This document shows, in pieces, positions 1 to 13,547 of a stretch of DNA of 13,547 nt. The notes under the pieces are model-generated. The model was not told the DNA's origin and ran no database searches. It was given only the letters and a program-made list of their open reading frames with translations. Made by a program: the position numbers and the translations under genes. Source of the stretch: a virus; IMG/VR virus record IMGVR_UViG_3300045988_029035, positions 1 through 13,547 of that record; one strand, written 5' to 3'. Each line of letters starts with the position of its first letter. Position 1 is the stretch's first letter.

Positions 1-111
1 GGGACACGTAATAGCAGATTGCACAAAATTTTCTTCCCCAACGCACCAATTTTTGTGCAAAATGTCAATAGACACAAAATATAGTGCCCACGCCCCATAG
101 GGTAGGGGAGT
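1..111. repeat. Left inverted terminal repeat (ITR-L), 111 bp
   Basis: Checked base by base: bases 1-111 are the reverse complement of 13437-13547, and identity breaks at 112/13436. The terminus reads 5'-GGGACACG. An internal 10-bp inverted repeat pairs 19-28 (TTGCACAAAA) with 51-60 (TTTTGTGCAA). Confidence 0.97.
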
Positions 112-117
112 GGGCAC
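72..117 (-). terminator. Intrinsic terminator after the tail appendage gene, straddling the ITR boundary
   Basis: The minus strand reads GTGCCCAC-t-CCCC-taccctat-GGGG-c-GTGGGCAC followed by TATATTTTGTGT. The 5' arm is 117..110, the 3' arm is 91..84 and the U-tract is 83..72. It lies 15 nt downstream of the TAA at 132-134. Confidence 0.7.
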
Positions 118-131
118 AAGATACAATATAA

Positions 132-2438
132 TTACACGTTAGTTGTGGCCATTTTCTGCAAGTCGCTTTCCTGGTTAGATAGTTCGAGACCTGCTACAAC
201 GTTGCATCCTATGATGTTGCGCTGACCCGCTGAATCAAAGTGCATCCCGGCTGTGTAGAATTGTGCGGGTGCAAGAGGGATAATCGAATTAAAAAATACT
301 CTGTTATCGACACTGCCGTTAATGAAAGAAAAAGCGGCTGTCTCTGTGAATTTTGTAGTGCGCTGAACTACGTTTTTTGTAATCTGACATGCGGCAGACT
401 GCAACGCAACAATACACTGATCTACATTGATAAATTGGCAATTATCAATAATGCAACCTCTCGCATTAGTCAGCTGAACTCCGACGCAAGATTGTGTACC
501 GATAAATTGGCAGTTGCTTACGACGCCCGACGAATGCTGGAATTCCACCATACGATCACGGGCATTGAAATAGCAACCTTCAACAGTAATCTGGCTTTCT
601 CCTGCATTGTTGACATACAGTCCGCGGTTACACTGGTCTGCGATATAACCAGTAATCCAGATATTCCATACCGGGTTACCGCCACTTTTAGTAAAAATCT
701 GTATTGCTGTTTGAGCATGCGAGCACTCGCATCTATCAATGTAGACGTCGCGTATGTCATCGGAGTTGTACAGATTAAATTGTTGATTGTCGCCCGTCAG
801 ATTGTTAAAGCTACTGATACAGTTATAGAATCTGATGGACGCATTGCCACTAATTCCAGAGGCTCCCCCGCTGGATTCATCCAGAAGGAACGACGAATAT
901 GGGTTAGCCGATGTATAAAAAGTGTCGTGAACGACATTTTTTGTATAGGCGTTGATCGTGTTAATATAGCGTGCCACGCGTCGGCCACCTATACAATGTA
1001 TATTATCAATAGTGACGCGCTCTGCGTACTGTACGACGAAAAATTCCTGTACACTTTCTTCGGTTGCTACAAAAGTAGCATTGCGCACCGACAGTCTCTC
1101 CACATGAGATGCGGGGCTGTCGCCCGTTATATTGATAACACCATTAGGGCCGAATCCAACAGTATTATTGCAAAAGTCATAGGACGTGTGTTCATCAACT
1201 CGTACAGGGGCCTCAATTTTATAAATGGTATCGACCGCAGGTTTTCCATTTTCAATATGCCAGCTACCGGAAGTAGGAAATTTAATTACACCTGCAAAAG
1301 TCTGAATCGAGCCCCCGCGGAAAACATCTGCAATACTGGTATCAATATACCAGTCGGCGATTGTCTCTCCTGCTCTGATCAGGAACTTGCCGCCGTTTTT
1401 CTGGCGGAAGTGCAGGGTGCAGGGGGCCACAGGTTCACCAATCGTCAACATCACGCCGGACGCTACCACAATAGCGCCGCTGGTCATGAGCGGCGATCCG
1501 ATGTTAATTGCACCCGTAATAATGTACTCGCCATCAGGAATAAAAAGATCTTTGCCAGATGCAATGGCAGTTGAGAACGCAATAGTATCATCTGTAGTAC
1601 CGTCGCCCTTCGCACCATAGCTTTTAACGTTAGCGTAGTCAAGGACTTGTTTAGCATCCTGCTGTAACTGTTCAATGCTGTTCTGGAGGCCGTTGTCTGC
1701 GTTCTCCCGGGCCGTCTGCTCCGCACCAATAGCTGTCTGGAGCTGCGTGTCGGCGTTCTCTCTGGCCGTTTTCTCTGTGTCAATAGCCGTCTGAAGGTCG
1801 TTGTCTGCGTTCTCTCTGGCCTGCTTTTCGGTGTCAATAGCCGTCTGAAGGTCGTTGTCTGCGTTCTCTCTGGCCGTCTGCTCGGCGGTCAAGCGCTCAT
1901 TAAATGCAGTAAGCAGGTAATGTAGCACCTCATTAAATGTAGTAAGCAGGTAATGTAGCACCTCATTGGTAGAGCTGCTCACGCAGTTAGAGCCGGGTAC
2001 GTAGGCGTCACCCGCCTTCATTGCGGCAGTGATGCGCACCAGCAATCCGTTGACCCAAACAAGATCGTCAATGGCTCTTGCGGCTGTTGCGGTTGCACTG
2101 TGCCCTTCGTCTATGGGTGTAATCGCTTTTTTCACATTGGACCACAGCTCATCAAAGTTACCGATTTTTGTCCAGTATTCGGTGCGATCAAGAGAAACAC
2201 CGGACGGCACCGGCTGTACGGAAAGGTATGCGTTGCCGATGCTATCCACTACAACCGTGTTAGCCTCATACTGGCTCGTGATGTCCCACTGAATGGGGTT
2301 CGCGTATTTGATCGTGGCCAGACTGACGAAGTTCGTCAATTTTGTGTTGAACTCGTTCAGTACCTCGATAATCCAATCCAGATTGAGATCGTGGAAATTG
2401 GTGTAGGGTGCTTTGTGAATAGGATTGATGATACCCAT
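132..2438 (-). CDS. Tail fibre / pre-neck-appendage-like tailspike with a pectate-lyase-type parallel beta-helix (768 aa)
   Basis: The ORF track opens at a TTG (2471). I prefer the ATG at 2438 (MGIINPIHK...), which has AAGGAG 10 nt upstream overlapping the TAA of the upstream gene. The protein contains NVKSYGAKGDGTTDDTIAF, a pectate-lyase-superfamily cap motif typical of phi29 gp12-class appendages. It also has Cys/Asn-rich beta-helix rungs (NCQFIG...NCQFIN) and 18-aa coiled-coil repeats. It is the last gene of the late operon. Confidence 0.85.
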   Translation of the reverse strand: MGIINPIHKAPYTNFHDLNLDWIIEVLNEFNTKLTNFVSLATIKYANPIQWDITSQYEANTVVVDSIGNAYLSVQPVPSGVSLDRTEYWTKIGNFDELWSNVKKAITPIDEGHSATATAARAIDDLVWVNGLLVRITAAMKAGDAYVPGSNCVSSSTNEVLHYLLTTFNEVLHYLLTAFNERLTAEQTARENADNDLQTAIDTEKQARENADNDLQTAIDTEKTARENADTQLQTAIGAEQTARENADNGLQNSIEQLQQDAKQVLDYANVKSYGAKGDGTTDDTIAFSTAIASGKDLFIPDGEYIITGAINIGSPLMTSGAIVVASGVMLTIGEPVAPCTLHFRQKNGGKFLIRAGETIADWYIDTSIADVFRGGSIQTFAGVIKFPTSGSWHIENGKPAVDTIYKIEAPVRVDEHTSYDFCNNTVGFGPNGVINITGDSPASHVERLSVRNATFVATEESVQEFFVVQYAERVTIDNIHCIGGRRVARYINTINAYTKNVVHDTFYTSANPYSSFLLDESSGGASGISGNASIRFYNCISSFNNLTGDNQQFNLYNSDDIRDVYIDRCECSHAQTAIQIFTKSGGNPVWNIWITGYIADQCNRGLYVNNAGESQITVEGCYFNARDRMVEFQHSSGVVSNCQFIGTQSCVGVQLTNARGCIIDNCQFINVDQCIVALQSAACQITKNVVQRTTKFTETAAFSFINGSVDNRVFFNSIIPLAPAQFYTAGMHFDSAGQRNIIGCNVVAGLELSNQESDLQKMATTNV
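1695..1886. repeat. Imperfect 54-bp tandem repeats (about 3.5 copies) inside the tail fibre gene
   Basis: Units start at 1695, 1749, 1803 and 1857, each beginning GTC(T/G)GCGTTCTC. They encode the 18-aa repeats (E/K)(Q/K)TARENADNDLQTAIDT, a coiled-coil stalk. Confidence 0.9.
1898..1963. repeat. 33-bp tandem duplication inside the tail fibre gene
   Basis: 1898-1930 is CATTAAATGCAGTAAGCAGGTAATGTAGCACCT. 1931-1963 is identical except for one C/T difference. The duplication encodes NEVLHYLLT(T/A)F twice. Confidence 0.95.
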
Positions 2439-2452
2439 TTTATTGCATCTCC

Positions 2453-3142
2453 TTAATATACCAGCAAACAAAAGTTTGCCCGGATGTCCGTGACGATTTT
2501 ATGAACGGCATTTTCCATTGCAAGGGTCAACTCTTTGGAAATAAGGTCTTGCGGGTCCCGTCCTGCCCGGCCCTTCTCGGTCACGGTGTTGTTATAGCCG
2601 TCGTGCAACTCCGAGGTGTTGTTATCGGAGGTTGTCTGATCGGTGGTGGTTGTGTCGGTGCCGCTGCTGGTAATGGTGTTCCCAGTACCTAGGGCCGTCG
2701 TGCTCCTCTCCGCGGTTTGCAATGTCCCACTGTCGAACCCCGTGACGTCCCGGGTGGTGCTGTCACTGCCGTTATTCTGGCCGGTGGTGGTCAGGTTAGG
2801 CGCTCGGGTAGTTGTCCCCTTCACGCCGATTGTTCGGTTGATCGTGCCGCCGCTGTTTCCTGTATGGTCGGTGGTTCTGGTTCGGTCATCGGACGACAGC
2901 GCGTCGTATTCAAGGCCCAGCGCGTCAGCGTACCGGGTCCAGCTCGGAAGCATGGTTTCAGAATAGACGCCCAGCGCCCGACGCATCGTGGGGCCGTCCG
3001 CATATAGAACCTCTAATTCCATTGTATCAAACAGTAATTGATTGCAGGCAGTTTCTTTAGATACACTGACGGGGACTTTCAAGTCATCGAACAGCTCCGG
3101 GTATCCTGCCAACAACCCGTTAAAGCTCAAGGTTGCGTGCAT
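2453..3142 (-). CDS. Putative lower collar / tail tube adaptor protein (229 aa)
   Basis: The ATG at 3142 has AGGAGGTG 7 nt upstream. It overlaps the connector gene by 23 nt. It sits immediately after the connector gene, like phi29 gene 11. The central ~100 aa are rich in T/S/G/N. The function is assigned by synteny only. Confidence 0.5.
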   Translation of the reverse strand: MHATLSFNGLLAGYPELFDDLKVPVSVSKETACNQLLFDTMELEVLYADGPTMRRALGVYSETMLPSWTRYADALGLEYDALSSDDRTRTTDHTGNSGGTINRTIGVKGTTTRAPNLTTTGQNNGSDSTTRDVTGFDSGTLQTAERSTTALGTGNTITSSGTDTTTTDQTTSDNNTSELHDGYNNTVTEKGRAGRDPQDLISKELTLAMENAVHKIVTDIRANFCLLVY

Positions 3143-4061
3143 CGTTGTTCACCTCCTGCGTATTAGTATCGGGCGGGAACCTCCAATCGACCCACAAAAT
3201 AGACTTATCAATTCCAAACAGTTTTTGAACCCGTTCGCACCCACGCTGTAAGCTGTCCAACCAGAGCGACGCCTTAGCGGCTGTTTCAACGTTGTTAGAA
3301 TTGACTTCGTCGGTCAACATCCTCTCTTTTTTGCTGGTATTGGTATTCGGAATACCGACCTCGGTGTCAAATAGTGCTTTAATGGTTTTAAGAGCGGTTA
3401 GCAGTTCGTTGGTGATGAAGTTCCCTTTGAGGTCTGTTGCAAAATACATCCATGGGGCTTGCCCGGCCGCCCCATTCTTGGGCGCTTTGAGCAAAGAAGA
3501 ATCAACAAAAACGGCGGGGTCGCCCTGCATGATCTCGTCGAACATCTTTTTGAAAGATTCCGCACCCGCTTTGTTGCCTGCCGCAAACACGTAGGCAAGG
3601 CGGCTATTGATTAAATTGCTCTGGATGGTCTGGGCGGCAAGGGCCATCATATCCCCATAGTAGGCCACAATATCAACTATTCCACGGTAATCGGGCTGCA
3701 AATTGATGATCTCGCATTGTTTCCCGATCTGCAAATATGGAGACCCTTTAATAAAGGGGTTAGCAATGATAGAGTGTGTGGGATTGTAAAAAATGTTAAT
3801 GCCGGTAAGTCCCATTCGGTCATATACGAGGCCGTATCGGTCAGTGTTGAACACCGTTACACCGCCAGAACCGAAAACAAGATACTGCAAGCGGTTACAG
3901 GGCCAGGTGTCGGGGAGTGTCCATCGGACCATAGACACGGCCTCAAGAAACAGATACTTGCGGAAATAATAGGATAAGCTATTACCCTTGGTGTGCATCA
4001 CGGAGGGAGTCACCGGAGACACATGTGCGTTAATTTGTTCGTAACTATAGGGAGCACTCAC
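3120..4061 (-). CDS. Portal / upper collar connector protein, phi29 gp10-like (313 aa)
   Basis: The GTG start at 4061 has GGGAGG 9 nt upstream and forms a GTGA overlap with the upstream stop. Length is 313 aa versus 309 aa for phi29 gp10. The segment NTSKKERMLTDEVNSNNVETAAKASLWLDSLQRGCERVQKLFGID matches the gp10 segment I recall as [45 protein letters not shown]. Confidence 0.88.
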   Translation of the reverse strand: MSAPYSYEQINAHVSPVTPSVMHTKGNSLSYYFRKYLFLEAVSMVRWTLPDTWPCNRLQYLVFGSGGVTVFNTDRYGLVYDRMGLTGINIFYNPTHSIIANPFIKGSPYLQIGKQCEIINLQPDYRGIVDIVAYYGDMMALAAQTIQSNLINSRLAYVFAAGNKAGAESFKKMFDEIMQGDPAVFVDSSLLKAPKNGAAGQAPWMYFATDLKGNFITNELLTALKTIKALFDTEVGIPNTNTSKKERMLTDEVNSNNVETAAKASLWLDSLQRGCERVQKLFGIDKSILWVDWRFPPDTNTQEVNNDARNLEL

Positions 4062-4633
4062 AACAGATGACCTCCCTTCGCCATCTTAAACAGCAACCAT
4101 ACCGGCAATTTGCCAGTAGGTCCCGGGCCGGGACCCGGCCCGGGACCCGGCCCGGGACCCGGCCCGGGATCCGGGTTAGGGCCTCCGCCCGAGTCCCACT
4201 CTACGTCCCATGTGCCGACCTGATTCGGGATTCTGATAATGCTGGACGGGTCCCTCAGGTTTCCAGCTGCATCGGCATACTCCCAGTGCGTGTGAATGCC
4301 CGTGACGTAGCCGGTTTGTCCCTGTGTGCCGATAAACTGCCCCTTGGAGATCGTGTCGCCCACGTTCCAAATTTGTGAGGCAAAGTGCGCGGCCCGCCAT
4401 GTCGTGCCGTCGGCCATCCGTACTTTAATCATGTTGCCCCACGACTGATCGCCCGAGGTGCTGCCATTCCAGTGCTGAGCCACGACCACAACGCCAGACT
4501 CGGGCGCATAGGCTTTATGATCTCCGTGGACTGTGTCAATTCCCCGGTGGGGGCTACCGTCAGAGTATGCCGGATACCCGGCGGTGACTCTGATCGGTGA
4601 TACATCAGTAATACACTGTTTATATACTGCCAT
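4058..4633 (-). CDS. M23 (LytM-type) zinc metallopeptidase, a peptidoglycan hydrolase, with a C-terminal (GP)n linker (191 aa)
   Basis: The ATG at 4633 has AGGAGG 8 nt upstream. The M23 zinc-ligand motifs are present: HRGID (HxxxD) and HTHWEY (HxH). The C-terminus is GPNPDPGPGPGPGPGPGPGPGPTG followed by KLPVWLLFKMAKGGHLL. It lies in the tail module, like the M23 domain of phi29 gp13. Confidence 0.88.
   Translation of the reverse strand: MAVYKQCITDVSPIRVTAGYPAYSDGSPHRGIDTVHGDHKAYAPESGVVVVAQHWNGSTSGDQSWGNMIKVRMADGTTWRAAHFASQIWNVGDTISKGQFIGTQGQTGYVTGIHTHWEYADAAGNLRDPSSIIRIPNQVGTWDVEWDSGGGPNPDPGPGPGPGPGPGPGPGPTGKLPVWLLFKMAKGGHLL
4117..4176. repeat. 12-bp GC-rich tandem repeat encoding the (GP)n linker
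   Basis: The unit CGGGACCCGGCC is perfect at 4129-4140, 4141-4152 and 4153-4164, with degenerate copies on both sides. The array is full of CCCGGG palindromes. Confidence 0.9.
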
Positions 4634-4645
4634 AATTTACGCCTC

Positions 4646-6049
4646 CTACTCTAAAAAGAATCCATTTTTCATATAGCTTTTAACGCTGTCAATCTCGGCG
4701 GCAGTCGCGGTTAATGCGATGTCGGGGTCATCTACCATAATGAACCCCGGAATACTGAACAGTTGGACGCGCTTGCAAAGGGGCCTGCCGTGGTCCTCAT
4801 TGTTGTCGTCCACAAGAATTTTAAACCGGGCAACTATATAAGGGATTGTATCAAAAGCTATTGTGGACCCCGTAGCGCCCTTGCTCGCTACATCTGCATT
4901 AGTTGCCTGTGCAGCATTTAAAATACCATTTCCGACGTCTGAAATAGAACCACCGGATAACGCGGCCTGTAGACCTCCAAACGCAGCAGCAATACCGGTT
5001 TGAAGCAGTCCATTGTTACCTGAGGGGATGCCAAAAGTAATATTAGATAGTTGAATAGAAACACCTAATTTTGCTGTCGTTTCGTGTACTAACTGATTCG
5101 CGTTGGTGAATATACGTAAAATACTGTCGCCGGTAAAAAGGTCAGTCACATATTGTATAGATAATGTTGTGGCGCCCCACAGTTTAGATGCATCAAGAGG
5201 TATCACTCCAAAGGGCTGCAAGAAGATAGTGTAGTCCGTGTAGGGGGAGGCATTACAATACCCTCCGCGGCTTGCCGCTTGAGGGTGCTTCGGGATACTC
5301 ACGCTCACCGATTTTGTTAATTTGTTATTATCTTCTCCCAAAATCCAGCACGGGACGTCCACCGACCACCACCCCACATCGACACTAGAAACAAGCGGCA
5401 AATGCGCGGTGATTTCTGCAATGTTAAATGGATAATAGTTGCAACTGACGATATATTGATATGGATTAAAAAGGACCTTTGTTAAATTGTCGCTAATTTC
5501 TGAATTGTCAATACTAAGGTATGACACATTAGTCAGCAATTTTGCAGATAGTTTTTTGGCATTTGTAGGGGTCATTACTGCATATGTAATAGCCCCAATG
5601 GAGTTTGCGGCTTTAGCTATAAACCCAATAACAAAGAATCCCCCGCTAATTGTTTCCGCAAAGCCACCTTGAAAAGCGGTTGTTACACTTTGCACTTTAG
5701 CCGATGCCGGGTAAAGTCCATCTGAAATTGTACCATCATACTGCGCCGACGATCTTGTGACATACTCCGTACTATTGCCGATCTGTTCCCGGTAGCTAGC
5801 AAGAGTGTCAACAGTCAGCGACGCATTCCAAAGCCCGTCCGAATATGTCCAGTTCTTCACCCAGTAATACCGGCTGAACGTGGGAAGGTAACAATAATTG
5901 AACCCGGTGGGGTCACTCTGTGTTGCAATTTTGATCTCGGGGTCAATGATATTGCAGGGGGCCTTAAGGTCGATTCCGAACCCTTGCCCACCGCTGGGCA
6001 GCTTTGTGCTATTGGTGCGCTTTGCGAACTGATAAAAGGTAGCTTGCAT
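4646..6049 (-). CDS. Putative tail knob / distal tail protein, phi29 gp9-like (467 aa)
   Basis: The ATG at 6049 follows AGGAGGTG. The TAG stop overlaps the next gene's RBS. The gene sits between the capsid and connector genes, as phi29 gene 9 does. A Gly/Ala-rich loop (GIAAAFGGLQAALSGGSISDVGNG) and the C-terminal ...AEIDSVKSYMKNGFFLE resemble what I recall of the gp9 C-terminal part (...DLQEIRTIFDNGITLW). Confidence 0.6.
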   Translation of the reverse strand: MQATFYQFAKRTNSTKLPSGGQGFGIDLKAPCNIIDPEIKIATQSDPTGFNYCYLPTFSRYYWVKNWTYSDGLWNASLTVDTLASYREQIGNSTEYVTRSSAQYDGTISDGLYPASAKVQSVTTAFQGGFAETISGGFFVIGFIAKAANSIGAITYAVMTPTNAKKLSAKLLTNVSYLSIDNSEISDNLTKVLFNPYQYIVSCNYYPFNIAEITAHLPLVSSVDVGWWSVDVPCWILGEDNNKLTKSVSVSIPKHPQAASRGGYCNASPYTDYTIFLQPFGVIPLDASKLWGATTLSIQYVTDLFTGDSILRIFTNANQLVHETTAKLGVSIQLSNITFGIPSGNNGLLQTGIAAAFGGLQAALSGGSISDVGNGILNAAQATNADVASKGATGSTIAFDTIPYIVARFKILVDDNNEDHGRPLCKRVQLFSIPGFIMVDDPDIALTATAAEIDSVKSYMKNGFFLE

Positions 6050-6060
6050 TTTGCACCTCC

Positions 6061-6092
6061 TATAAAATAACCGGCGGGCGACGCCCGCCGGT
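6061..6092 (-). terminator. Intrinsic terminator after the major capsid gene
   Basis: The minus strand reads ACCGGCGGGCG-t-CGCCCGCCGGT (6092..6070), followed directly by TATTTTATA and then the RBS of the next gene. It lies 5 nt downstream of the capsid stop. Confidence 0.85.
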
Positions 6093-6097
6093 GCTTG

Positions 6098-7372: not shown

Positions 7373-7373
7373 C

Positions 7374-7757: not shown

Positions 7758-7977
7758 CTTTGGTCGCCTCCATTACAACGTACATGTCATGTGCCAAACA
7801 CTTAACGACAAGGTCCTTGTCTCCTTTGGTGACCGGGCCCACTGCGCAACACTGCCGCGTATGGTCACCGTTAGCCCAGTCACTATAATAGGGTATGCTC
7901 AAACGGGCGCACAAATCAGACAGCAAAAACGCGCGCTCGTTTGCGATAGACTGGGCGAAAATGATATAACAACCCAT
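7744..7977 (-). CDS. Hypothetical small Cys-rich protein (77 aa)
   Basis: I prefer the ATG at 7977 (MGCYIIF...), with AAGGGGGA 6 nt upstream, over the TTG at 7983 used by the ORF track. The gene sits between the holin and scaffold genes and overlaps the scaffold start by 14 nt. No recognisable motif. Confidence 0.6.
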   Translation of the reverse strand: MGCYIIFAQSIANERAFLLSDLCARLSIPYYSDWANGDHTRQCCAVGPVTKGDKDLVVKCLAHDMYVVMEATKVENQ

Positions 7978-7979
7978 GG

Positions 7980-8315
7980 TCAATCCCCCTTGAGTTTTGC
8001 AAAAATTTTAGTAAGAGGCCCCACCAATTCAGGATTGATCGCTCCGATATTCTCAATAATGCTGCCAATTTCCATCAAAACAAAATAGGTGCAACCGATG
8101 GCCGAGAAAGACACATTAACATTAACGCCTACAAAGGGAAGATAGAAATCAGTGGCAGCGAGCAACCCCACGGCCAGAACTTCACCGAATTTGTGGTAAA
8201 ACCCCTGTCGCATCACGCTGGAATCAAAACCAGTGGTAGAAAAGGCTTTAACCATACCACTGACAACATCCATGCCGATGAACACCAGAACGGCCAGCAC
8301 TGCGTAAACGTTCAT
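7980..8315 (-). CDS. Holin, Phage_holin_4_1 / TIGR01593-like family (111 aa)
   Basis: The ATG at 8315 has GGGAGGTG 7 nt upstream. There are three hydrophobic segments. GMDVVSGMVKAF...FYHKFGEVLAVGLLAATD...YFVLMEIGSIIENIG matches the conserved pattern of this Firmicute phage holin family. Confidence 0.85.
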   Translation of the reverse strand: MNVYAVLAVLVFIGMDVVSGMVKAFSTTGFDSSVMRQGFYHKFGEVLAVGLLAATDFYLPFVGVNVNVSFSAIGCTYFVLMEIGSIIENIGAINPELVGPLTKIFAKLKGD

Positions 8316-8345
8316 ATAACATCACCTCCCATACAGATATAAGTA

Positions 8346-8415
8346 AATCCCCGGTTCTTGCGCTGGCTGACGCCTGCCCGCCCCTTCTGGGGGCTGCCTG
8401 TGGGCACCGGGGATT
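8346..8415 (-). other. 70-nt structured RNA element: late-mRNA leader stem, terminator of the upstream operon, or candidate small RNA
   Basis: A 10-bp closing stem pairs AATCCCCGGT (8415..8406) with ACCGGGGATT (8355..8346). It encloses 50 GC-rich nt that contain an inner GCCCC-cagaa-GGGGC hairpin. It is followed by TACTTATATCTGTAT and then the holin RBS. Confidence 0.5.
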
Positions 8416-8421
8416 ATCTTT

Positions 8422-8449
8422 ATTATACATTAGCTGTGTAAAAAGTCAA
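8422..8449 (-). promoter_or_regulatory. Near-consensus sigma-A/sigma-70 promoter (candidate late promoter)
   Basis: The minus strand reads TTGACT (8449..8444), a 16-nt spacer, then TATAAT (8427..8422). This is the best promoter match I found in the genome. The -35 box overlaps the ATPase TGA stop. The predicted start near 8415 falls on the first base of the stem at 8415..8406. Confidence 0.65.
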
Positions 8450-9507
8450 GTGCCGCAATACTCACGGAAGAAAATTTCATCCGAGTAGCGCTCAAATTCA
8501 AGTTGCCGCTGCAAGTACGCGGGCCAAATATACCCATATGCGGCCCTGAACCGTTTCCGCTCATAGTCGCCGGTTCCATACGTGGGCATCTCGCCCGACC
8601 TGTGGCGACATACATAGTAAAGGGGTTTGCTCTTGTGCTCATAGATGCAACACCGGCCAATCTGTACAAGTGGGTAATATTCACGCAGGGGCCGGGACAC
8701 CACCAAACTCTTTTCTTCGGCGCTATACTGGTTCTCAATAGCTGATCTATAAAAGTCTGTGCCGCTCATGGACCTATAGAGGGCCGTATTTGCTTTCTCT
8801 TTTGCAATAGGACTATCGACAAGATCAATCAGCAAAATGCCCTTATCGGCCAACAGCTTGCAGCGCTCTTTCTTGCCGATCATCTTTTCTACTGTGTCGG
8901 TGATCTCCCATTGCATATAATAGGGGTTCGCCATGCCAACAGCGTTTGACATGCACAACAGCGTCAGGGGCTTTTGCCCCTTTAATTCGCGGTTACGGTT
9001 TACCGTTTCATAAATGTTAGCAAGGCCCACGCCCTCACCGCGCCGGTAATAGTCGGATTCTTCTTTCTGATATTCATCCAAGATGATTATATTGGTGTGG
9101 GGACTTGAAAAACCACGGGTTCGGGCAAGAGTTACGACGCTCCCCACAACTCCGGCCATTTGGGCCGGTTTTATGGGAGACCCTGTATCAGTGTAGGCCC
9201 CTGCGTTGCCTACTTCATACAGTCCCGCTATTTTAGGTATTTTAAACGGGGCATAATGTGTTTGCAAATCGTCGTTCAATGGAGACCATGGCCACATACT
9301 AGGCGACGCGCAAATAAGTTCCGCTTGCTGCGGCGTGCGGCGCAGATACAGAAATTCCTCCTCGGTCTGGTGTACGTGCTTTAATGCTCCGTAGGTCTTG
9401 CCGGTACCACGCCCGCCCCATATAAAAATAATAGATGCACCAGTGGACAGAATTCCGTCCTTCTCAGAAAAATTTGGCCACCCTTCATCGGTGTACAGTT
9501 TAATCAT
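8446..9507 (-). CDS. DNA packaging (encapsidation) ATPase, phi29 gp16-like (353 aa)
   Basis: The ATG at 9507 forms an ATGA overlap with the polymerase stop, with GGAGG 7 nt upstream. Walker A is IWGGRGTGKTY and Walker B is IIILDEY. FLYLRRTPQQAEL and CMSNAVGMANPYY match the gp16 segments I recall as FIYVRRYKPELAK and CLSNAVSVVNPYF. Confidence 0.9.
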   Translation of the reverse strand: MIKLYTDEGWPNFSEKDGILSTGASIIFIWGGRGTGKTYGALKHVHQTEEEFLYLRRTPQQAELICASPSMWPWSPLNDDLQTHYAPFKIPKIAGLYEVGNAGAYTDTGSPIKPAQMAGVVGSVVTLARTRGFSSPHTNIIILDEYQKEESDYYRRGEGVGLANIYETVNRNRELKGQKPLTLLCMSNAVGMANPYYMQWEITDTVEKMIGKKERCKLLADKGILLIDLVDSPIAKEKANTALYRSMSGTDFYRSAIENQYSAEEKSLVVSRPLREYYPLVQIGRCCIYEHKSKPLYYVCRHRSGEMPTYGTGDYERKRFRAAYGYIWPAYLQRQLEFERYSDEIFFREYCGT

Positions 9508-11597
9508 CAGATAACCTCCATAATCTTGTACCCTAGTATCTTTGCGTACTCGTCAGTGATGCCCAACGTATAGGTATTATCACAAATACACAGGTTTCTC
9601 GTAATGTGGACCGTATGCCCATCAACCACAAAATCGGGCACATTTGGGCGGTCATTATAAATAACCTGATTTCCTGCCGCAAGACAAAACGTAAACCCGG
9701 GCTTAAACACCTCGAAACCGCCCCACAGGGCCAGCTCCAAACCGCCCTTCCGCTTGCTGACTCCTGCTATAGTGGTAGTGATCGGCCCGCCTTTTTTATA
9801 GGTAGTTGCGTATTTTTTTGCGCCCCACGTCATAAACTCCGCATAGCTGCGCTCCTGCTCGTATACGCCCATATAATGAGTGTTGCCTTTTGGGTCGGTG
9901 GCACAAGCACCGTTATCTTTTGCAAGTTGTTTCACTGCTTTGTTAAAGTCCGACAAATCAATATTGCCCATGTATTTTACACTGTCTGTATCGCAGTACA
10001 CGCCATTCTTGCCCGCGGCCCATTGCGCTATTTTTAGGCGCTTGCGAGTATGGGCAGTCGTCCACACGCCCCATTGGTACGGTAGGAACAAGTGTGGGCG
10101 GTGATCGTTATAACTGCCCTCAGGGTCGTCGGTACATTCGCTCCAGAGATTGTCGGGGTCGTCCTCGTCAAAAAGTGTGTCCAGCTGCAGGGGGTCTTGT
10201 GCGGTCATACCATAATAGCTATTCAGATCGCCCTTGGACTTAACATAATACAAATCTTGACCGGCTACACCTTTAAGGGATGTTTTGCCCGTGTAGGATT
10301 CTTTGACGCAATCTGTCAACGGTTTAGGCAATTTGCCATAATCGGACGTGTACAGGTCCAGAACGTTAAGGGCATCCCAATCATACTCTTTCGCAATGAT
10401 TCTAAAGTCGATGTCTGTTATTGTAATCTCGAAATGTTCAGCAGACAACAAACGGCCGTTGTCGTTTATGTATCCTTCACAGTGCCGAACTTTTGCGAGC
10501 GGAATATAGGGGAACCCCCACCACTTAAACCGCTGGCGCAAACCTTTTACTTGTAGGCGCATCAAGCACGCCTTGCCGTGTCTCATACATTGCATAAGCC
10601 GCCCGACGGTGGCTGGCTCCTGCCTAAATGGAGTCATAGGAAAATAACATTCACATTGTGCCCCGGGATATGCGCTAGACATATCCTCAGAACCGACGTT
10701 TTCCAGATGGAGCCCGACATAATACCGATTGGCGTGAGTGTCGCCACCTCGGAAGGCCTCCCGCAGCATCTGGTACAATTCCCACGACGGCAAGAGGCGC
10801 TTAACCTTTTTAATGCCCCATTCATACATTGCTTCTCGGGCCATTCGTCTGACGTATCCGGTTCGCGTTAATGGTAGAGTATAGAGATCGTCACCGTCTC
10901 GCTTCATCTCAATTAACAGGCACTCTACAATACACCGAACGTCATTGATACAGTACGCTAATTCTGTAGATGTCAGGGGAGTCCATGGATACCGCACTTT
11001 TGAATAATCAAGAGCGCCTGTTAATTTGGCATGAGGTGCACCCAGCTGCTTGCCCCAAGCATCAAGGGACAAGTTGCTGTGTCTCATACTGCACCGATAT
11101 TCAATAGCGCGGTTGTCACATTTTAAGACCCGGCGGGGCTTGCTGGCAAACACATCGCCCGGGCCAAAATCCAAAACGCCCGACAGATATTGGAATTCAT
11201 GGGCAAGATTATGGACGTACATACATAAATACCAATCGCCGTGCGGGCCACTGTTGGCCTGCAAGTAATCGCTGATCGCACCTGTAAAATTTAACCACTC
11301 ATCCCACGTCCTGCCGATAATGGTAATATCCAAACCTAGTTGACATTGCCAAATATACATAATGGTGTGAGGGTTGTCGTCGGCGTCAACACACACGCGG
11401 CTTGTTTCAATATCAAACGCGCACGGCATAGCTACATACAAACGCTTCTTGTTCGTTTTGCGCTTTTTGCCTTTGGTGTGCTTCCTGTCCATATGCTCCA
11501 TGAGCCAAGGGACCGGGTTGTAATTACAAGCCTCCGCCAAAACCTCCGCGCAGGTCGGCGGAACTGCTGCCGTCGCTGTAGTCCCATTCTTTGCCAT
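9507..11597 (-). CDS. Protein-primed family-B DNA polymerase (696 aa)
   Basis: The ORF track starts at a TTG (11636). I prefer the ATG at 11597 (MAKNGTT...), with GGTGAGG 7 nt upstream. Exonuclease motifs: Exo I FDIETS, Exo II HNLAHEF, Exo III YCINDV. Polymerase motifs: A DMSSAYP, B KGDLNSYYG, C YCDTDS, and KxY GAKKY. These parallel phi29 DVNSLYP, KLMLNSLYG and YCDTDS. Confidence 0.93.
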   Translation of the reverse strand: MAKNGTTATAAVPPTCAEVLAEACNYNPVPWLMEHMDRKHTKGKKRKTNKKRLYVAMPCAFDIETSRVCVDADDNPHTIMYIWQCQLGLDITIIGRTWDEWLNFTGAISDYLQANSGPHGDWYLCMYVHNLAHEFQYLSGVLDFGPGDVFASKPRRVLKCDNRAIEYRCSMRHSNLSLDAWGKQLGAPHAKLTGALDYSKVRYPWTPLTSTELAYCINDVRCIVECLLIEMKRDGDDLYTLPLTRTGYVRRMAREAMYEWGIKKVKRLLPSWELYQMLREAFRGGDTHANRYYVGLHLENVGSEDMSSAYPGAQCECYFPMTPFRQEPATVGRLMQCMRHGKACLMRLQVKGLRQRFKWWGFPYIPLAKVRHCEGYINDNGRLLSAEHFEITITDIDFRIIAKEYDWDALNVLDLYTSDYGKLPKPLTDCVKESYTGKTSLKGVAGQDLYYVKSKGDLNSYYGMTAQDPLQLDTLFDEDDPDNLWSECTDDPEGSYNDHRPHLFLPYQWGVWTTAHTRKRLKIAQWAAGKNGVYCDTDSVKYMGNIDLSDFNKAVKQLAKDNGACATDPKGNTHYMGVYEQERSYAEFMTWGAKKYATTYKKGGPITTTIAGVSKRKGGLELALWGGFEVFKPGFTFCLAAGNQVIYNDRPNVPDFVVDGHTVHITRNLCICDNTYTLGITDEYAKILGYKIMEVI

Positions 11598-12123
11598 AGT
11601 TAACCTCACCTTGCTGCCACTGTACAAAATCGTCAATACTGACGTTGTAGCCGCCCTTCTCGCGCCAGTACATGACCGGCTGATCGGACGGATAATAATA
11701 CACGCCCGATGCCTTCACGGTCTCCCACCATTCCAACAGGGCCGTGTATTGATCTTCGGGCACGTCGGCAATGTCAATGCCGCCAACTTTCATTTTTTGT
11801 TCGAATTCGGCACGCGCACCGCCAACGGTGGAACCCTTGGAACGAACAAAGCGCGCTACATCCGCAAGGGCCTGCTCCAATGCTTTACGGTCTCCCCGCA
11901 TTGCCTTTAGGGTCGGGAAACCTACGGCGAATTCCTTATAAACGTCGCTTGTGCCGCTGATAGGGTCTTTTGATAAGCGCTTAATACGTTTCTGCGCAAT
12001 GTCGCGAAGTCGGGAATACTCTTTGCGCATTTGGTTATCGGGCCAAAACTCCAAGGCATAAGGGGTGTACAGCTCGGAGCTGTATTTGAGGGTTGCGCTT
12101 GCTTTAGCTGCGCCTACTGCCAT
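11524..12123 (-). CDS. Candidate terminal protein (199 aa)
   Basis: The ATG at 12123 has AAGGAG 10 nt upstream. The gene lies immediately upstream of the polymerase gene and overlaps it, the position of gene 3 in phi29. The C-terminal part is rich in aromatic, acidic and Ser residues (YYYPSDQPVMYWREKGG...WDYSDGSSSADL). I recognise no sequence homology, so the function is inferred from synteny and the requirement for a protein primer. Confidence 0.5.
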   Translation of the reverse strand: MAVGAAKASATLKYSSELYTPYALEFWPDNQMRKEYSRLRDIAQKRIKRLSKDPISGTSDVYKEFAVGFPTLKAMRGDRKALEQALADVARFVRSKGSTVGGARAEFEQKMKVGGIDIADVPEDQYTALLEWWETVKASGVYYYPSDQPVMYWREKGGYNVSIDDFVQWQQGEVNYGKEWDYSDGSSSADLRGGFGGGL

Positions 12124-12334
12124 GCTTCATCTGCTCCTTTCTATTCATAATCATATAATACCAGTCGAGGGGGTCTGCTTCAATGCCGAGGCCGTTAAAA
12201 ATAATTTTGGCCCATTCAGAACGGAAAAAATTGACATCTTTGTTAGTGACTCCACTGTATACAATGGCAGATGCAAGATATATCATGGAGTCGTCGCAAT
12301 TCAGCAAGGATACTCTGTTATCTTTACTTTTCAT
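12104..12334 (-). CDS. Hypothetical early protein (76 aa)
   Basis: The ATG at 12334 follows AGGAGG. It overlaps the next gene by 20 nt. It is more AT-rich than its neighbours. No motif recognised. Confidence 0.6.
   Translation of the reverse strand: MKSKDNRVSLLNCDDSMIYLASAIVYSGVTNKDVNFFRSEWAKIIFNGLGIEADPLDWYYMIMNRKEQMKHGSRRS
12155..12183 (-). promoter_or_regulatory. Candidate internal promoter upstream of the terminal-protein/polymerase genes
   Basis: The minus strand reads TTGAAG (12183..12178), a 17-nt spacer, then TATTAT (12160..12155). It lies inside the 76-aa ORF, about 30 nt upstream of the ATG at 12123 and downstream of the terminator at 12343-12377. Confidence 0.3.
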
Positions 12335-12342
12335 GGGGCCTC

Positions 12343-12377
12343 CTATAACAAATAGGGCCGCCGCATGTGCGGCGGCC
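12343..12377 (-). terminator. Intrinsic terminator / attenuator between the SSB-like gene and the 76-aa ORF
   Basis: The minus strand reads GGCCGCCGCA-ca-TGCGGCGGCC (12377..12356), followed by CTATTTGTTATAGG, which runs into the next RBS. Confidence 0.7.
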
Positions 12378-12387
12378 TTAGGTTAAA

Positions 12388-12822
12388 TTAAACCAGATTC
12401 AAAGACAGAACCTGACCTTTTTTGGTGCTGATCAAAACAGGCTTAATCTGCACCGGCTCCGTCCATGTGTCAGGGGTTCCAAGCAAAGTAAACATACGTT
12501 TCAGAGACTGGTACACACCGACGGAAACACATACGTAGGATTGCCCATCCTCGGTAATGAGGACAACACGCGGGGCAATCGTTTTGTCCTCGGGAACGTC
12601 ATCCTTGCTGACCTCGACGCACTCCACGGAAACATGAACCAGCGACAGAACCTCGTTGACATGCTCCCTCAGCTTGTTGGCAGGGTTGCTCGTGGCATTG
12701 TAGAATGCAATCGCGGCAGAGCGGTCAGAAAGATTCATGTCGGTATACCCCACGCCGGTGTTCATCACATCGGATACCAACATAGCACCAGTGTTTTCGG
12801 ACTTCATCATTGCTTCGGACAT
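12388..12822 (-). CDS. Early protein, possibly an ssDNA-binding protein (144 aa)
   Basis: The ATG at 12822 has AAAGGAG 9 nt upstream. It sits in the replication module. Its overall pattern (AFYNATSNPANKL...VLSLVHV...APRVVLITEDGQSYVCVSVGVYQSLKRMFTLLG) reminds me of the lactococcal phage p2 ORF34-type SSB family. The CDS call is solid, but the function is tentative. Confidence 0.55.
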   Translation of the reverse strand: MSEAMMKSENTGAMLVSDVMNTGVGYTDMNLSDRSAAIAFYNATSNPANKLREHVNEVLSLVHVSVECVEVSKDDVPEDKTIAPRVVLITEDGQSYVCVSVGVYQSLKRMFTLLGTPDTWTEPVQIKPVLISTKKGQVLSLNLV

Positions 12823-12861
12823 AATACAAAACTCCTTTCAATATGTGCCCTGTCTCATCAA

Positions 12862-12901
12862 CACCGGGCGGGCGGCCCCGGTGGACGGCCCGGAGGGCCG
12901 T
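12862..12901 (-). other. Two tandem GC-rich hairpins in an early intergenic region
   Basis: In plus-strand coordinates, CACCGGG (12862-12868) pairs with CCCGGTG (12877-12883), and ACGGCCC (12885-12891) pairs with GGGCCGT (12895-12901). No convincing U-tract follows on the minus strand. Confidence 0.45.
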
Positions 12902-12907
12902 TTCGAC

Positions 12908-13183
12908 TTATTGTATGTACTTATTGTACAACTTTTGATAGAAATTACGCATGTGCTCACGTACTTTGACAGCCCCCTGGTACTCAAGATCAGCCGACAA
13001 ACAAGAGCCCTTAAATACTGTAAGGTTACTTAGTTCGTCATCGCAATGAATAAGCGCTTGCCGATAACCTTCCAACCATGCACGATTATATGTGGCGTTG
13101 GCCGCGTCCTTTGGGTCCTCATACTCGCAGCACGTCAACGTACCATCCGGGTGTATCTCAATGATGAATTTACGCATTACCAT
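12908..13183 (-). CDS. Hypothetical early protein (91 aa)
   Basis: The ATG at 13183 has GGAAGGAGA 8 nt upstream. It overlaps the upstream 58-aa ORF by 14 nt. No motif recognised. Confidence 0.65.
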   Translation of the reverse strand: MVMRKFIIEIHPDGTLTCCEYEDPKDAANATYNRAWLEGYRQALIHCDDELSNLTVFKGSCLSADLEYQGAVKVREHMRNFYQKLYNKYIQ

Positions 13184-13346
13184 TTGCGGAATCTCCTTCC
13201 TGTAAAATACTTAAAGTCTTGTTAAGACTGATAAGCATTTTAATACTATCAATAATATCATTCTCGGTCAGTTCTTGCAGGTTCTCACCATCAAGAGCAA
13301 TATTATCATCGGTTAAAATGATTTTAATCGTGATTTCTTTCTTCAT
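13170..13346 (-). CDS. Small acidic early protein (58 aa), not in the supplied ORF track
   Basis: Hand translation gives MKKEITIKIILTDDNIALDGENLQELTENDIIDSIKMLISLNKTLSILQEGDSANGNA followed by TAA. The ATG at 13346 has AGGGAGG 7 nt upstream. It is the first gene after the early promoter region. The DNA is very AT-rich. Confidence 0.6.
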   Translation of the reverse strand: MKKEITIKIILTDDNIALDGENLQELTENDIIDSIKMLISLNKTLSILQEGDSANGNA

Positions 13347-13372
13347 GCTATAGCCTCCCTTCGTCTTAATGG

Positions 13373-13426
13373 ATTATATATAGTATACCACATACTAAAT
13401 TGTATATATTGCTTTATACATTGCAA
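13373..13426 (-). promoter_or_regulatory. Early promoter region with stacked promoter-like elements
   Basis: The minus strand reads TTGCAA (13426..13421), a 16-nt spacer, then TACAAT (13404..13399). Next come an extended -10 TGgTATACT (13390..13382) and a TATAAT (13378..13373). The inverted repeat TGTATA-n8-TATACA lies between the first -35 and -10 elements. The region sits between ITR-R and the first gene. Confidence 0.5.
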
Positions 13427-13436
13427 AAATTGCTAT

Positions 13437-13547
13437 ACTCCCCTACCCTATGGGGCGTGGGCACTATATTTTGTGTCTATTGACATTTTGCACAAAAATT
13501 GGTGCGTTGGGGAAGAAAATTTTGTGCAATCTGCTATTACGTGTCCC
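13437..13547. repeat. Right inverted terminal repeat (ITR-R), 111 bp
   Basis: Exact reverse complement of 1-111. It ends ...CGTGTCCC-3', so the complementary strand also starts 5'-GGGACACG. Confidence 0.97.

Follow-up and report, generated by a model that had tools for sequence, protein, structure and literature searches.

We are confident that the stretch of DNA analysed here (13,547 bp, 50% GC; hereafter the window) is the complete linear double-stranded DNA genome of a small phi29-like podophage of the human gut, from a lineage that is very abundant, often sequenced and formally unclassified, and that is neither new nor the smallest of its kind. Its 16 credible genes, all of them minus-strand, take up 95% of the sequence. 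In the early operon the order is orf58, orf91, a hammerhead ribozyme, the single-stranded DNA-binding protein (SSB), a terminator, orf76, the putative terminal protein (TP), the DNA polymerase (PolB) and the gp16 ATPase. A strong promoter and a conserved small RNA follow, and after them come the genes of the late operon, namely holin, orf79, scaffold candidate, major capsid protein (MCP), terminator, gp9 tail knob, M23 peptidase, gp10 connector, gp11-position protein and gp12-like spike. The initial annotation had likewise described a complete phi29-like genome bounded by inverted terminal repeats (ITRs), with 16 tightly packed genes and a minimal virion and replication set, and this description holds, down to the physical termini. 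The features are as follows.

1..111, no strand: left ITR, a perfect inverted repeat whose terminus begins GGGACACG
13437..13547, no strand: right ITR (same repeat and terminus evidence as the left arm)
13170..13346, minus: orf58, early protein (open reading frame; strain-variable)
12908..13183, minus: orf91, early protein (open reading frame with a ribosome-binding site)
12844..12908, minus: type II hammerhead ribozyme, following orf91 and just upstream of the SSB gene (RF02276)
12388..12822, minus: phi29 p5-type SSB (PF17427, E 9e-9; phrog_6243, E 1.3e-18)
12356..12377, minus: intrinsic-terminator-like hairpin after the SSB gene (9 GC pairs, then a U-rich tail)
12104..12334, minus: orf76 (open reading frame with a ribosome-binding site)
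11524..12123, minus: candidate TP, 199 aa (directly upstream of PolB, like phi29 gene 3)
9507..11501, minus: protein-primed-type family B DNA polymerase, 664 aa (PF03175 over cut-off; phrog_1907, E 2.6e-38)
8446..9507, minus: gp16-type DNA encapsidation ATPase (PF05894, E 2.8e-14; phrog_2150, E 3.8e-25)
8422..8449, minus: near-consensus sigma-70/sigma-A promoter, TTGACT-16-TATAAT (11/12 matches, the best in the window)
8343..8418, minus: conserved 76-nt three-way-junction RNA at the start of the late operon (RNAfold z, covariance models, covariation)
7980..8315, minus: holin (PF05105, E 5.3e-15)
7744..7983, minus: orf79 (conserved in distant relatives; tblastn matches in contigs L089 and L140)
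7374..7757, minus: candidate scaffolding protein (directly upstream of the MCP gene, like phi29 gp7)
6098..7372, minus: phi29-type MCP (PF25622, E 5e-17; phrog_2006)
6070..6092, minus: strong intrinsic-terminator-like hairpin after the capsid gene (10-bp stem with 9 GC pairs, then a U run)
4646..6049, minus: gp9-type tail knob, 467 aa (by fold; sequence searches gave no match)
4058..4633, minus: M23 peptidoglycan peptidase, 191 aa, with a C-terminal (GP)n linker (PF01551, E 1.8e-13)
3120..4061, minus: gp10-type connector, or upper collar (PF05352, E 2.8e-16; phrog_2038, E 2.4e-26)
2453..3142, minus: candidate lower collar, 229 aa (after the connector gene, like phi29 gp11)
132..2471, minus: tail spike or gp12-like pre-neck appendage with a pectate-lyase beta-helix (PF12708, E 3.4e-10; PHROG tail spike / pre-neck appendage)

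The initial annotation went further and took the window for a near-minimal and probably undescribed lineage of protein-primed tailed phages, with Mycoplasma P1 alone smaller, a view to which we leave only a slim chance. In its favour, none of the phages classified by ICTV is close, tblastn detects only five of the 16 proteins in the best cultured relatives, at 23-35% identity, and the nearest GenBank record is unannotated and marked 'UNVERIFIED'. That record, MT836263.1 ('Bacteriophage sp.' scaffold_1796, human faeces, Mexico; 13,058 bp, without ITRs), is nevertheless 88% identical in nucleotides over 88% of the window (114-13450), with the same gene order and most proteins 85-97% identical (orf91 94.5%). 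Its tail knob is only 55% identical and its orf58 just 59%, and the holin, which has no match in it, is replaced, so that the two genomes are mosaic. In fact, the first late gene is a holin here and another gene in many strains, and a strain alignment shows two alternative downstream genes.

The lineage is also found far beyond this one record. There are hundreds of related contigs in IMG/VR, ENA and Logan, including at least 184 IMG/VR contigs whose PolB is at least 96% identical, and the window's proteins fall in 90%-identity clusters of 3187-8632 members, some of which carry GenBank TPA names (DAO51879.1, DAL57884.1, DAS14029.1). The close records are themselves unclassified. As to size, cultured phi29-like phages of 10.4-12.3 kb share the architecture (Amedibacillus AD70P2/AD70P3, 12.2-12.3 kb; Astrithrvirus, 11.6 kb; Vibrio K58 g2, 10.4 kb), so Mycoplasma P1 is not alone in being smaller. 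A review (Evseev et al. 2024, PMC11476376) already counts over 2000 phi29-like entries, of which many are human-gut genomes of 12-15 kb, and lists 11-15 kb gut phi29-like clusters; one representative, at 13,382 bp and 49.8% GC, resembles the window in size and GC, the two properties on which they were compared. Thus the genome is an ordinary one, because its lineage is already abundant in human-gut sequence databases.

Could the ITR be an assembly artefact, the true molecule being circular, concatemeric or integrated? Assemblers can duplicate ends, and two long contigs, L084 (26.4 kb) and L018 (18 kb), seem to exceed the genome ends, but we hold this to be very improbable. The ITR arms are 111 nt each and 100% complementary. 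Fourteen related contig ends coincide exactly with position 1 and about 36 others fall 1-11 nt short; GGGACACG is the common stopping point for dozens of independent assemblies from many samples and pipelines, and in five contigs (L072, L069, L050, L088, L006) TruSeq/Nextera adapters or linker are joined straight onto the terminus. Because independent assemblies share one stop nucleotide and adapters abut it, the ITR ends are true physical termini. Moreover, the ITR pair is identical inside each genome yet 2-12% diverged from genome to genome, and the unique sequence that adjoins it differs between the left and right ends and is conserved across assemblies. The two overruns appear artefactual: L018 folds back on itself as a palindrome, and L084 is a chimera of two strains, strain A being cut within its ITR and strain B starting from an intact terminus. 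A search of 185,579 species genomes revealed no chromosomal insertion; the matches there are solely whole contigs of 4.8-13.5 kb, binned into metagenome-assembled genomes of three unrelated genera.

Most gene assignments come from family matches scored against curated cut-offs (Phi29_Phage_SSB, DNA_pol_B_2, Podovirus_Gp16, Phage_holin_4_1, Phi29_MCP, Peptidase_M23, Phage_connector and pectate-lyase-like spike), and in this way the PolB, gp16-like ATPase, gp10-like connector, gp8-like capsid and gp12-like appendage named at the outset all passed. Linear plasmids too carry PF03175 polymerases and ITRs, but with a full virion module present (MCP, connector, tail knob, spike, packaging ATPase and holin) a non-viral PolB element, whether a linear plasmid or casposon-like, is the least credible reading of all. 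The sole PDB match of PolB is phi29 DNA polymerase (E 2e-7), YCDTDS motif included. Its start is most likely the ATG at 11501 rather than the TTG at 11636, because gene callers on public contigs gave exactly the 664-aa product. The 199-aa TP candidate is all-helical, with invariant EY.R.RD.AQKR.KR, STV.G and S146-D147 (alignment A1), and matches the syntenic, itself uncharacterised Astrithrvirus gp02 (hhalign prob 96%, E 3e-9); similarity to phi29 TP is absent in both sequence and fold comparisons. Protein priming is suggested by the polymerase family, the ITRs, synteny and this homology. Orf76 gave no match in family searches.

Among the virion proteins, the 467-aa protein is, by its predicted fold, the gp9 tail knob that had been proposed. 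An AF2 model built with 41 diverse homologues (pLDDT 85, pTM 0.69) has phi29 gp9 as its top 7 Foldseek matches in the PDB (5fb5/5fb4/5fei; E 3.5e-12, prob 1.0), residues 340-385 forming a disordered Gly/Ala-rich loop, and 5055 cluster representatives (clustered at 50% identity) are homologous at E<=1e-3. The spike matches phi29 gp12 in the PDB (3gq7, E 1.3e-6); its gene has coiled-coil repeats at 1682-1961 and probably starts at an ATG near 2438. Lower collar and scaffold are candidates by position and weak similarity. Family searches gave no match to the former, which BLASTP aligns weakly but in register with phi29 gp11 (E 0.21); its match to the syntenic AD70P3_00003 is better (E 8e-7). The scaffold candidate contains a (PAPQ)x10 repeat encoded by a 12-nt x 10 tandem repeat. 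Family searches of the window's proteins detected neither a head-fibre homologue nor a Big_2/Ig domain, as had been noted. The absence of a separate endolysin, also proposed, stands in part: there is no amidase or lysozyme among the window's genes, but a holin and the M23 peptidase are present. The latter matches the C-terminal domain of phi29 gp13 (residues 188-285; BLASTP E 2e-7) and would be a similar tail lysin and/or an endolysin.

By analogy with phi29-type phages, replication would start at both ends, primed by the 199-aa protein, and the terminal GGG would allow sliding-back, the gp16-type ATPase would package unit-length DNA via the connector, and the tail knob and M23 peptidase would open a Gram-positive cell wall. 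A species of Bacillota (Clostridia) is the probable host, given the holin family, GGAGG ribosome-binding sites and sigma-A promoters.

With phi29 itself (a Bacillus phage, Salasmaviridae) the window shares the predicted replication and packaging strategy, the structural order 7-8-9-10-11-12, and homologous or structurally matching counterparts of p5, p2, gp16, gp8, gp9, gp10, gp12 and the gp13 C-domain. The TP candidate, in contrast, has no sequence relation to its phi29 namesake. phi29 is larger (19.3 kb) with a shorter ITR (6 bp against 111 bp). Its early and late operons diverge and are controlled by p4/p6, whereas the window uses one strand with the ATPase gene in the early operon. The phi29 MCP bears an Ig domain, and the phage also has a head fibre and a separate endolysin, with a pRNA of 174 nt encoded at the left end of its genome. 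The cultured AD70P2/AD70P3, which NCBI files under Guelinviridae, have the window's single-strand order (TP-position gene, PolB, ATPase, intergenic gap, scaffold, MCP, knob, portal, collar, fibre), with PolB 35%, MCP 29% and connector 33% identical. They differ in GC content (27% vs 50%) and smaller genome, only 5/16 window proteins are detectable by tblastn, and the deposited record has no ITR and no hammerhead at the Rfam gathering threshold. Astrithrvirus (Salmonella phages astrithr, assan and Astrid) and its allies Phanie, DU_PP_III, Entb_47 and Vibrio K58 g2 are phi29-like phages of 10.4-11.9 kb that also have ITRs (18 bp in astrithr), a PolB 31-35% identical and, in Astrithrvirus, a putative TP homologous to the 199-aa protein and a gp09 matched by the N-terminus of the window's knob. 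Unlike the window, they infect Gram-negative hosts and leave no gap between the ATPase gene and the next one, and the RNA motif found no match in them; their tail knob is divided over two genes (PMC11476376).

Two structured RNAs lie among these genes. The hammerhead scores 43.3 bits against RF02276 (gathering score 37; E 3.4e-6) and is kept in 76 related loci, with core variants C3-G8, U3-G8 and U3-A8 and a covarying stem I pair. Nine relatives that were scanned, including L084 with its near relative, contain no hammerhead that reaches the Rfam gathering threshold. U3-A8 core covariation has been described for type II hammerheads of phages and prophages (Perreault et al. 2011, PMC3088659), and the related loci agree; like those ribozymes, the window's copy reaches the gathering score and sits between genes of a polycistronic phage transcript. 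Unlike them, it pairs U3 with G8, and this wobble in its core means that it may be slow.

The second is the 76-nt RNA, which the promoter at 8422..8449 is predicted to drive together with the late operon; a TTGACA-17-TAtAaT arrangement stands ahead of the motif in nearly all lineages examined. The RNA (RNAfold z -3.1) consists of P1, P2, a 7-nt bulge, a P3 hairpin with a CRGAA loop and a P4 hairpin, with a U run after P1. We searched for it with models R1-R3: the 22 R2 matches agree without exception in relative position and strand, and the lineages that contain them have ATPases about 30-40% identical. A candidate can be made out by eye in the ATPase-scaffold gap of AD70P2/AD70P3. In the alignment 93.5% of cells are paired, covariation is 0.773 vs 0.162 when shuffled (0/500 shuffles), and the complementarity between bulge and P4 loop covaries as well (0/200000 permutations). 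A 60-aa open reading frame at 8248-8430 was rejected as spurious because it overlaps this conserved non-coding RNA.

The RNA matches nothing in Rfam, RF00044 included. We regard it as a candidate mini-pRNA, with a cis-acting leader as the competing interpretation. As in phi29 prohead RNA (RF00044), the 5'-to-3' order is closing helix (A/P1), helix (C/P2), 5'-side bulge (CE), hairpin (E/P3), return strand, second hairpin (D/P4) and closing strand; over 3-6 nt the bulge is the Watson-Crick complement of the second hairpin's loop, the two covarying, and some lineages use the AACC(A)/(U)GGUU of phi29 pRNA. The differences lie in length (76 nt vs 120-174 nt), in the closing helix (9 bp vs about 24 bp with a CCA bulge) and in placement, since here the RNA opens the late operon at its 5' end and in phi29 it belongs to an early unit at the genome end. 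To our knowledge, phi29-type DNA-packaging RNA has been reported from Bacillus phages only. An otherwise ordinary genome here carries a conserved RNA of pRNA-like shape.

The genome is a linear double-stranded DNA with inverted terminal repeats (ITRs) at its true ends. A perfect 111-nt inverted repeat occupies positions 1-111 and 13437-13547, and related contigs stop where the window stops. A scan of IMG/VR with the polymerase (PolB) returned 184 relatives, mostly contigs of 13.0-13.9 kb, and among the best 80 of these 184, which we kept (PolB at least 96% identical), 14 contig ends stop exactly at position 1 (GGGACACG...) and some 36 others fall 1-11 nt short of it. The few contigs that run beyond the terminus do so into library sequence: a TruSeq adapter is joined to GGACACG or CGTAATAGC in L072 and L069, another lies at one end of L088, and a Nextera adapter is joined at position 9 in L050. 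Because adapters directly abut the terminus, the molecule ends there. The two ITRs are identical within each genome and 2-12% different between genomes, the pattern expected if both ends stay identical inside each genome. One further contig, L006, carries one and the same 55-nt sequence on both genome termini (TAAGATGTGAAGGAGCCTGCTCTAATAACG..., L006:1-55), probably a library linker.

The initial annotation had described a complete, ITR-bounded phi29-like phage genome, and the repeat, the contig ends, the adapters and the gene content all bear this out. Contigs spanning the ends, or an integrated form, would tell against it. The 26.4-kb contig L084 joins two different strains, of which one is truncated within its ITR and the other begins at an intact terminus, and the over-long 18-kb L018 is a fold-back palindrome; both are artefacts and not concatemers. 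No integrated copy was found in 185,579 bacterial and archaeal species scanned at one genome per species. The matches in that scan were whole phage-sized contigs in metagenome-assembled genomes of three unrelated genera (Collinsella, Prevotella and Butyricicoccus), which points to mis-binning, and we rejected them as a host signal.

Every long open reading frame preceded by a Shine-Dalgarno site is on the minus strand, where 16 genes take up 95% of the sequence (GC 50%); the window holds no tRNAs, and a 60-aa frame at 8248-8430 was rejected as a gene. Pfam and PHROG matches, counted above curated cut-offs, name eight of the products:

12388-12822, minus strand: phi29 p5-type single-stranded DNA-binding protein (SSB)
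9507-11501, minus strand: family B polymerase (PF03175)
8446-9507, minus strand: gp16 encapsidation ATPase
7980-8315, minus strand: holin
6098-7372, minus strand: phi29-type major capsid protein (MCP)
4058-4633, minus strand: M23 peptidase
3120-4061, minus strand: gp10 connector
132-2471, minus strand: pectate-lyase-type spike

The packaging ATPase, MCP and connector all exceed their Pfam cut-offs (3/3). The spike matches phi29 gp12 (E about 1e-6) and the M23 peptidase the C-terminal domain of phi29 gp13 (E 2e-7), this peptidase and the holin being the only lysis or wall-degrading functions found. The polymerase scores 30.7 bits against a PF03175 cut-off of 25.8, its sole relative in the PDB is phi29 DNA polymerase (E 2e-7), and its sequence assigns it to the protein-primed family B type. 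The gene directly upstream encodes a 199-aa candidate terminal protein (TP), in whose family basic and Ser-Asp motifs are invariant and of which the syntenic Astrithrvirus gp02 is a homologue (hhalign probability 96%). Searches of the PDB by phmmer and by profile found nothing, hhalign against phi29 p3 gave nothing, and its AlphaFold2 model (pLDDT 78) drew no Foldseek match in the PDB. Since the 199-aa protein has no detectable relation to the phi29 TP, it is by analogy that we infer protein priming in this phage.

The 467-aa product has no family or solved-structure match at the sequence level (phmmer and profile against the PDB, Pfam on 41 homologues), and hhalign aligned it to gp9 with a probability of 9%. 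However, when an AlphaFold2 model built from 41 diverse homologues (pLDDT 85) was compared with the PDB by Foldseek, the top seven matches were all the phi29 gp9 tail knob (5fb5: E 3.5e-12, probability 1.0, TM about 0.5). By this fold comparison the protein is a gp9-type tail knob; the sequence-level searches were negative or weak. The single disordered stretch of the model is a Gly/Ala-rich loop (residues 340-385), which resembles the membrane-active loop of gp9. A search of the related loci with the diverse knob alignment returned close relatives only. A 229-aa protein in the gp11 position shows a weak, in-register similarity to gp11 (BLASTP E 0.21). Scaffold candidate, MCP, knob, connector, collar candidate and appendage follow one another as genes 7-8-9-10-11-12 do in phi29. 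The M23 gene interrupts this series behind the knob gene, and the ATPase gene has shifted to the last position of the early operon.

If the phage works as phi29 does, both ITRs would be start points of TP-primed replication, with the terminal GGG permitting sliding-back. A promoter just inside the right ITR would drive the early operon, a near-consensus promoter at 8449-8422 would start the late one, and a strong terminator at 6092-6070, after the MCP gene, could set the ratio of capsid to tail proteins; the gp16-type ATPase would then package unit-length DNA. A hairpin at 84-117 (GTGCCCAC...GTGGGCAC) straddles the inner edge of the left ITR, with a T-rich run after it on the minus strand, and is likely the late-operon terminator, lying partly inside the ITR.

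Two other claims of the initial annotation did not survive. It took the lineage to be probably undescribed; yet an unannotated GenBank record from human faeces (MT836263.1, deposited without ITRs) is 88% identical across 88% of the window, the 90%-identity clusters to which the window proteins all belong number 3,187-8,632 members each, with GenBank TPA names among them, and a survey of more than 2000 phi29-like entries includes many human-gut clusters of 12-15 kb (Evseev et al. 2024, PMC11476376). One entry of that survey, 'Virus sp. ctxAI8' (13,382 bp, 49.8% GC, with Clostridia suggested), resembles the window in size and GC, the two values compared. The initial annotation also called the genome near-minimal and named Mycoplasma P1 alone as smaller, whereas cultured relatives of the same architecture reach down to 10.4 kb: Amedibacillus AD70P2/P3 (12.2-12.3 kb), filed under Guelinviridae; Salmonella astrithr/assan/Astrid (11.6-11.7 kb); and Acinetobacter Phanie, Pectobacterium DU_PP_III, Enterobacter Entb_47 and Vibrio K58 g2 (10.4 kb). 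According to the survey, the Amedibacillus phages form a cluster separate from that of the Clostridium Guelinviridae (Evseev 2024, PMC11476376).

We use phi29-like protein-primed podophages as an informal group that takes in Salasmaviridae, Guelinviridae, Rountreeviridae, Astrithrvirus and others. Judged by sequence, the window does not show the close proteome relationship to phi29 and its relatives that would place it in Salasmaviridae: pairwise tblastn with phi29 detects 5/16 proteins at 23-35% local identity and leaves the MCP undetectable. The same comparison with AD70P3 also detects five of the 16. Because tblastn against cultured phages finds 5/16 window proteins, at 23-35% identity, the lineage is taxonomically unplaced, yet clearly of an already known type. 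The genome by itself adds little; what it provides is a clean reference sequence, complete from one true terminus to the other, for an unclassified phage lineage that is very common in the human gut.

Strains of this lineage are mosaic. Between the window and MT836263 most proteins are 85-97% identical, but the knob (4646-6049) is at 55%, between neighbours at 92-97%, and orf58 at 59%. The holin (7980-8315) is replaced in MT836263, and many strains have an unrelated first late gene in its place; instead of the pectate-lyase spike, one strain has a module of three genes, whose products measure 213 aa, 79 aa and, for a GDSL lipase, 423 aa (L084:3728-5898). In the scaffold candidate, (PAPQ)10 is encoded by a perfect repeat of 12 nt x 10 (7566-7685), and the M23 peptidase has a (GP)n repeat at 4119-4178. 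Because many related contigs break exactly at these two repeats, their copy number is probably variable or mis-assembled. Tandem repeats of 54 nt x 3 and 33 nt x 2 at 1682-1961 encode heptad-like coiled-coil units (TARENADNDLQTAIDTEK) in the spike neck.

Two RNA elements lie between the genes. The first is a predicted type II hammerhead (RF02276) at 12844-12908 on the minus strand, which starts from the orf91 stop codon, lies between orf91 and the SSB gene and is conserved in 76 related loci. At 43.3 bits against a gathering score of 37, the sequence reaches the family threshold, with stems I and III closed, and related loci show a compensatory C-G to U-A change in stem I. The core in the window reads UUGAUGA (U3, G8) where the canonical form is CUGANGA...GAAA with C3-G8, and across related loci the catalytic 3-8 pair is C3-G8, U3-G8 as in the window, U3-A8 or, once, C3-A8. 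None of nine scanned relatives carries a hammerhead at the Rfam threshold (0/9). Both the U3-A8 covariation and hammerhead processing of phage polycistronic RNAs have been described (Perreault et al. 2011, PMC3088659); the element is of an already known type. Together with a terminator at 12377-12356 it brackets the SSB gene, an arrangement that suggests ribozyme-based shaping of mRNA in a minimal phage: cleavage upstream and strong termination downstream would yield a discrete, abundant SSB mRNA.

The second element is apparently undescribed, and its conservation is strongly supported. The 130-nt gap between the ATPase and holin genes has an unusually stable fold (z -3.1), and across about 80 strains a 70-nt core within it hardly changes, whereas the flanks vary and not even the gene that follows is constant; the closing stem shows compensatory changes among close strains. 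Covariance models built from these strains (R1-R3) find the RNA in lineages whose ATPases are about 30-40% identical, and it persists across lineages with proteins only about 30% identical. In 419 kb searched with R2 (E<0.1), all 22 of the 22 matches lie on the coding strand, 10-170 nt past the ATPase gene. The instances are as follows:

8343-8418, minus strand: RNA motif of the window
L143:5305-5376: RNA motif
L140:1047-1123: RNA motif
L142:8563-8638, minus strand: RNA motif
L089:4259-4347: RNA motif
L152, L154-L159, L162-L164, L168, L234, L240, L241: RNA motif in other records

A link to the ATPase gene itself was rejected: in MT835998, where R3 scores the motif at 38.5 bits, the RNA stays with the late promoter, while the ATPase gene and the early operon lie 8 kb away on the opposite strand. 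The covariance models found no match in phi29, astrithr or AD70P3. In the cultured AD70P3 we noticed, by eye only, a candidate at about 6295-6370 on the minus strand, with P1 UGAGGG/CCCUCA, P2 UUGC/GCAA, the bulge AUAUCCAA, P3 UAGUG-CCGAA-CACUA and a P4 loop GGGAU, followed by a U run and a ribosome-binding site (RBS); the RNA may be present in this phage also. In L142 (MT836587.1) a tRNA-Gln(UUG) sits immediately downstream of the motif (8489-8564, minus strand), and RNase P cleavage at this tRNA would define the 3' end of the upstream RNA.

In the alignment, the RNA opens with P1 (9 bp), P2 (4-5 bp) and a 7-nt bulge on the 5' side with a CA end, and continues through the P3 hairpin with its near-invariant loop (C-CRGAA-G), the return of P2, the P4 hairpin, a short A-rich joiner and the return of P1. 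In the model-derived alignment 93.5% of cells pair, and changes on both sides occur in 9/9 pairs of P1, 4/5 of P3, 2/3 of P4 and 2/5 of P2, the latter helix being supported though absent from the aligning model. The covariation score is 0.773; shuffled alignments give 0.162 (0/500), and slid partners no more than 0.143. From a MAFFT alignment, RNAalifold recovers P3 alone, because the divergent helices fail to align by sequence. In every lineage the bulge can form Watson-Crick pairs with the P4 loop, with differing sequences (GGC/GCC, GGAC/GUCC, GACC/GGUC, GAGC/GCUC, ACCA/UGGU, AACCA/UGGUU, AAUCA/UGAUU and others): a bulge forms on average 4.15 contiguous pairs with its own loop and 2.33 with those of other lineages (0/200,000 permutations), as would be the case for a contact within or between molecules alike. 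A promoter (TTGACA-17-TAtAaT) lies 3-8 nt upstream in nearly all instances examined, and behind most of them comes a U run, ahead of the first late RBS. In the clade of L143, L185, L175 and L169, CUUCCGGCAG occurs about 10-20 nt past the motif, just upstream of that RBS (L143:5387-5396); it is complementary to the conserved P3 loop and stem (GCCGGAAG) and may form an alternative pairing. No such complement occurs in the window's own lineage.

What could this RNA be? Its order of elements is that of the phi29 prohead RNA (pRNA), drawn in Rfam as A helix, C helix, CE bulge (AACC), E hairpin, C', D hairpin (GGUU) and A': the window RNA is likewise a three-way junction, with A, C, CE bulge, E hairpin and D hairpin in sequence and a complementary, covarying CE-type bulge and D-type loop. 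The pRNA forms its ring on the prohead by pairing of CE with D loops between adjacent molecules (PMC5066667), and the literature treats it as exclusive to phi29 and the related Bacillus phages (PMC5066667, PMC11476376). We tentatively propose that the 76-nt RNA could be a miniature prohead/packaging RNA. The shared topology, the covarying kissing pair, the self-contained unit of promoter, RNA and U run, the conserved folded state and the phage family in which it occurs all speak for this. Such an RNA would be transcribed from its own strong promoter, its 3' end set by P1 and the U run or by processing; kissing contacts between bulge and loop would join the molecules into a ring, which would dock the gp16-type ATPase on the connector. 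No family of Rfam 15 matches the intergenic RNA; the RF00044 (pRNA) model has no hit in the window at E<=5 and scores phi29 itself at 145 bits.

A similar probability attaches to a cis-acting leader or attenuator of the late operon, in which the bulge and the P4 loop would form an intramolecular pseudoknot. The late promoter and the first late gene always flank the RNA, P1 and the U run look like a terminator, and some lineages carry the downstream complement to the P3 loop. Two further readings were rejected: a tRNA-like RNA (ARAGORN predicts no tRNA, and the loops are too small for one), and a four-way junction with a local P2 hairpin, which is 56% paired against 80%, with covariation, for the long-range P2.

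We regard the RNA as a more useful result than the genome itself. If it is a leader, the early-to-late boundary would carry an RNA-based element, in a group of phages for which no late activator is known. As a miniature pRNA, it may extend pRNA beyond the Bacillus phages. We found no report on how other phi29-like phages fix their short ATPase to the portal; this RNA, with its pRNA topology and its covarying kissing sequences, opens the question to testing. Should the packaging role prove true, pRNA-dependent packaging would not be confined to the Bacillus Salasmaviridae, and the mechanism would go back to the ancestor of a very large clade of gut phi29-like phages with genomes of 12-14 kb.
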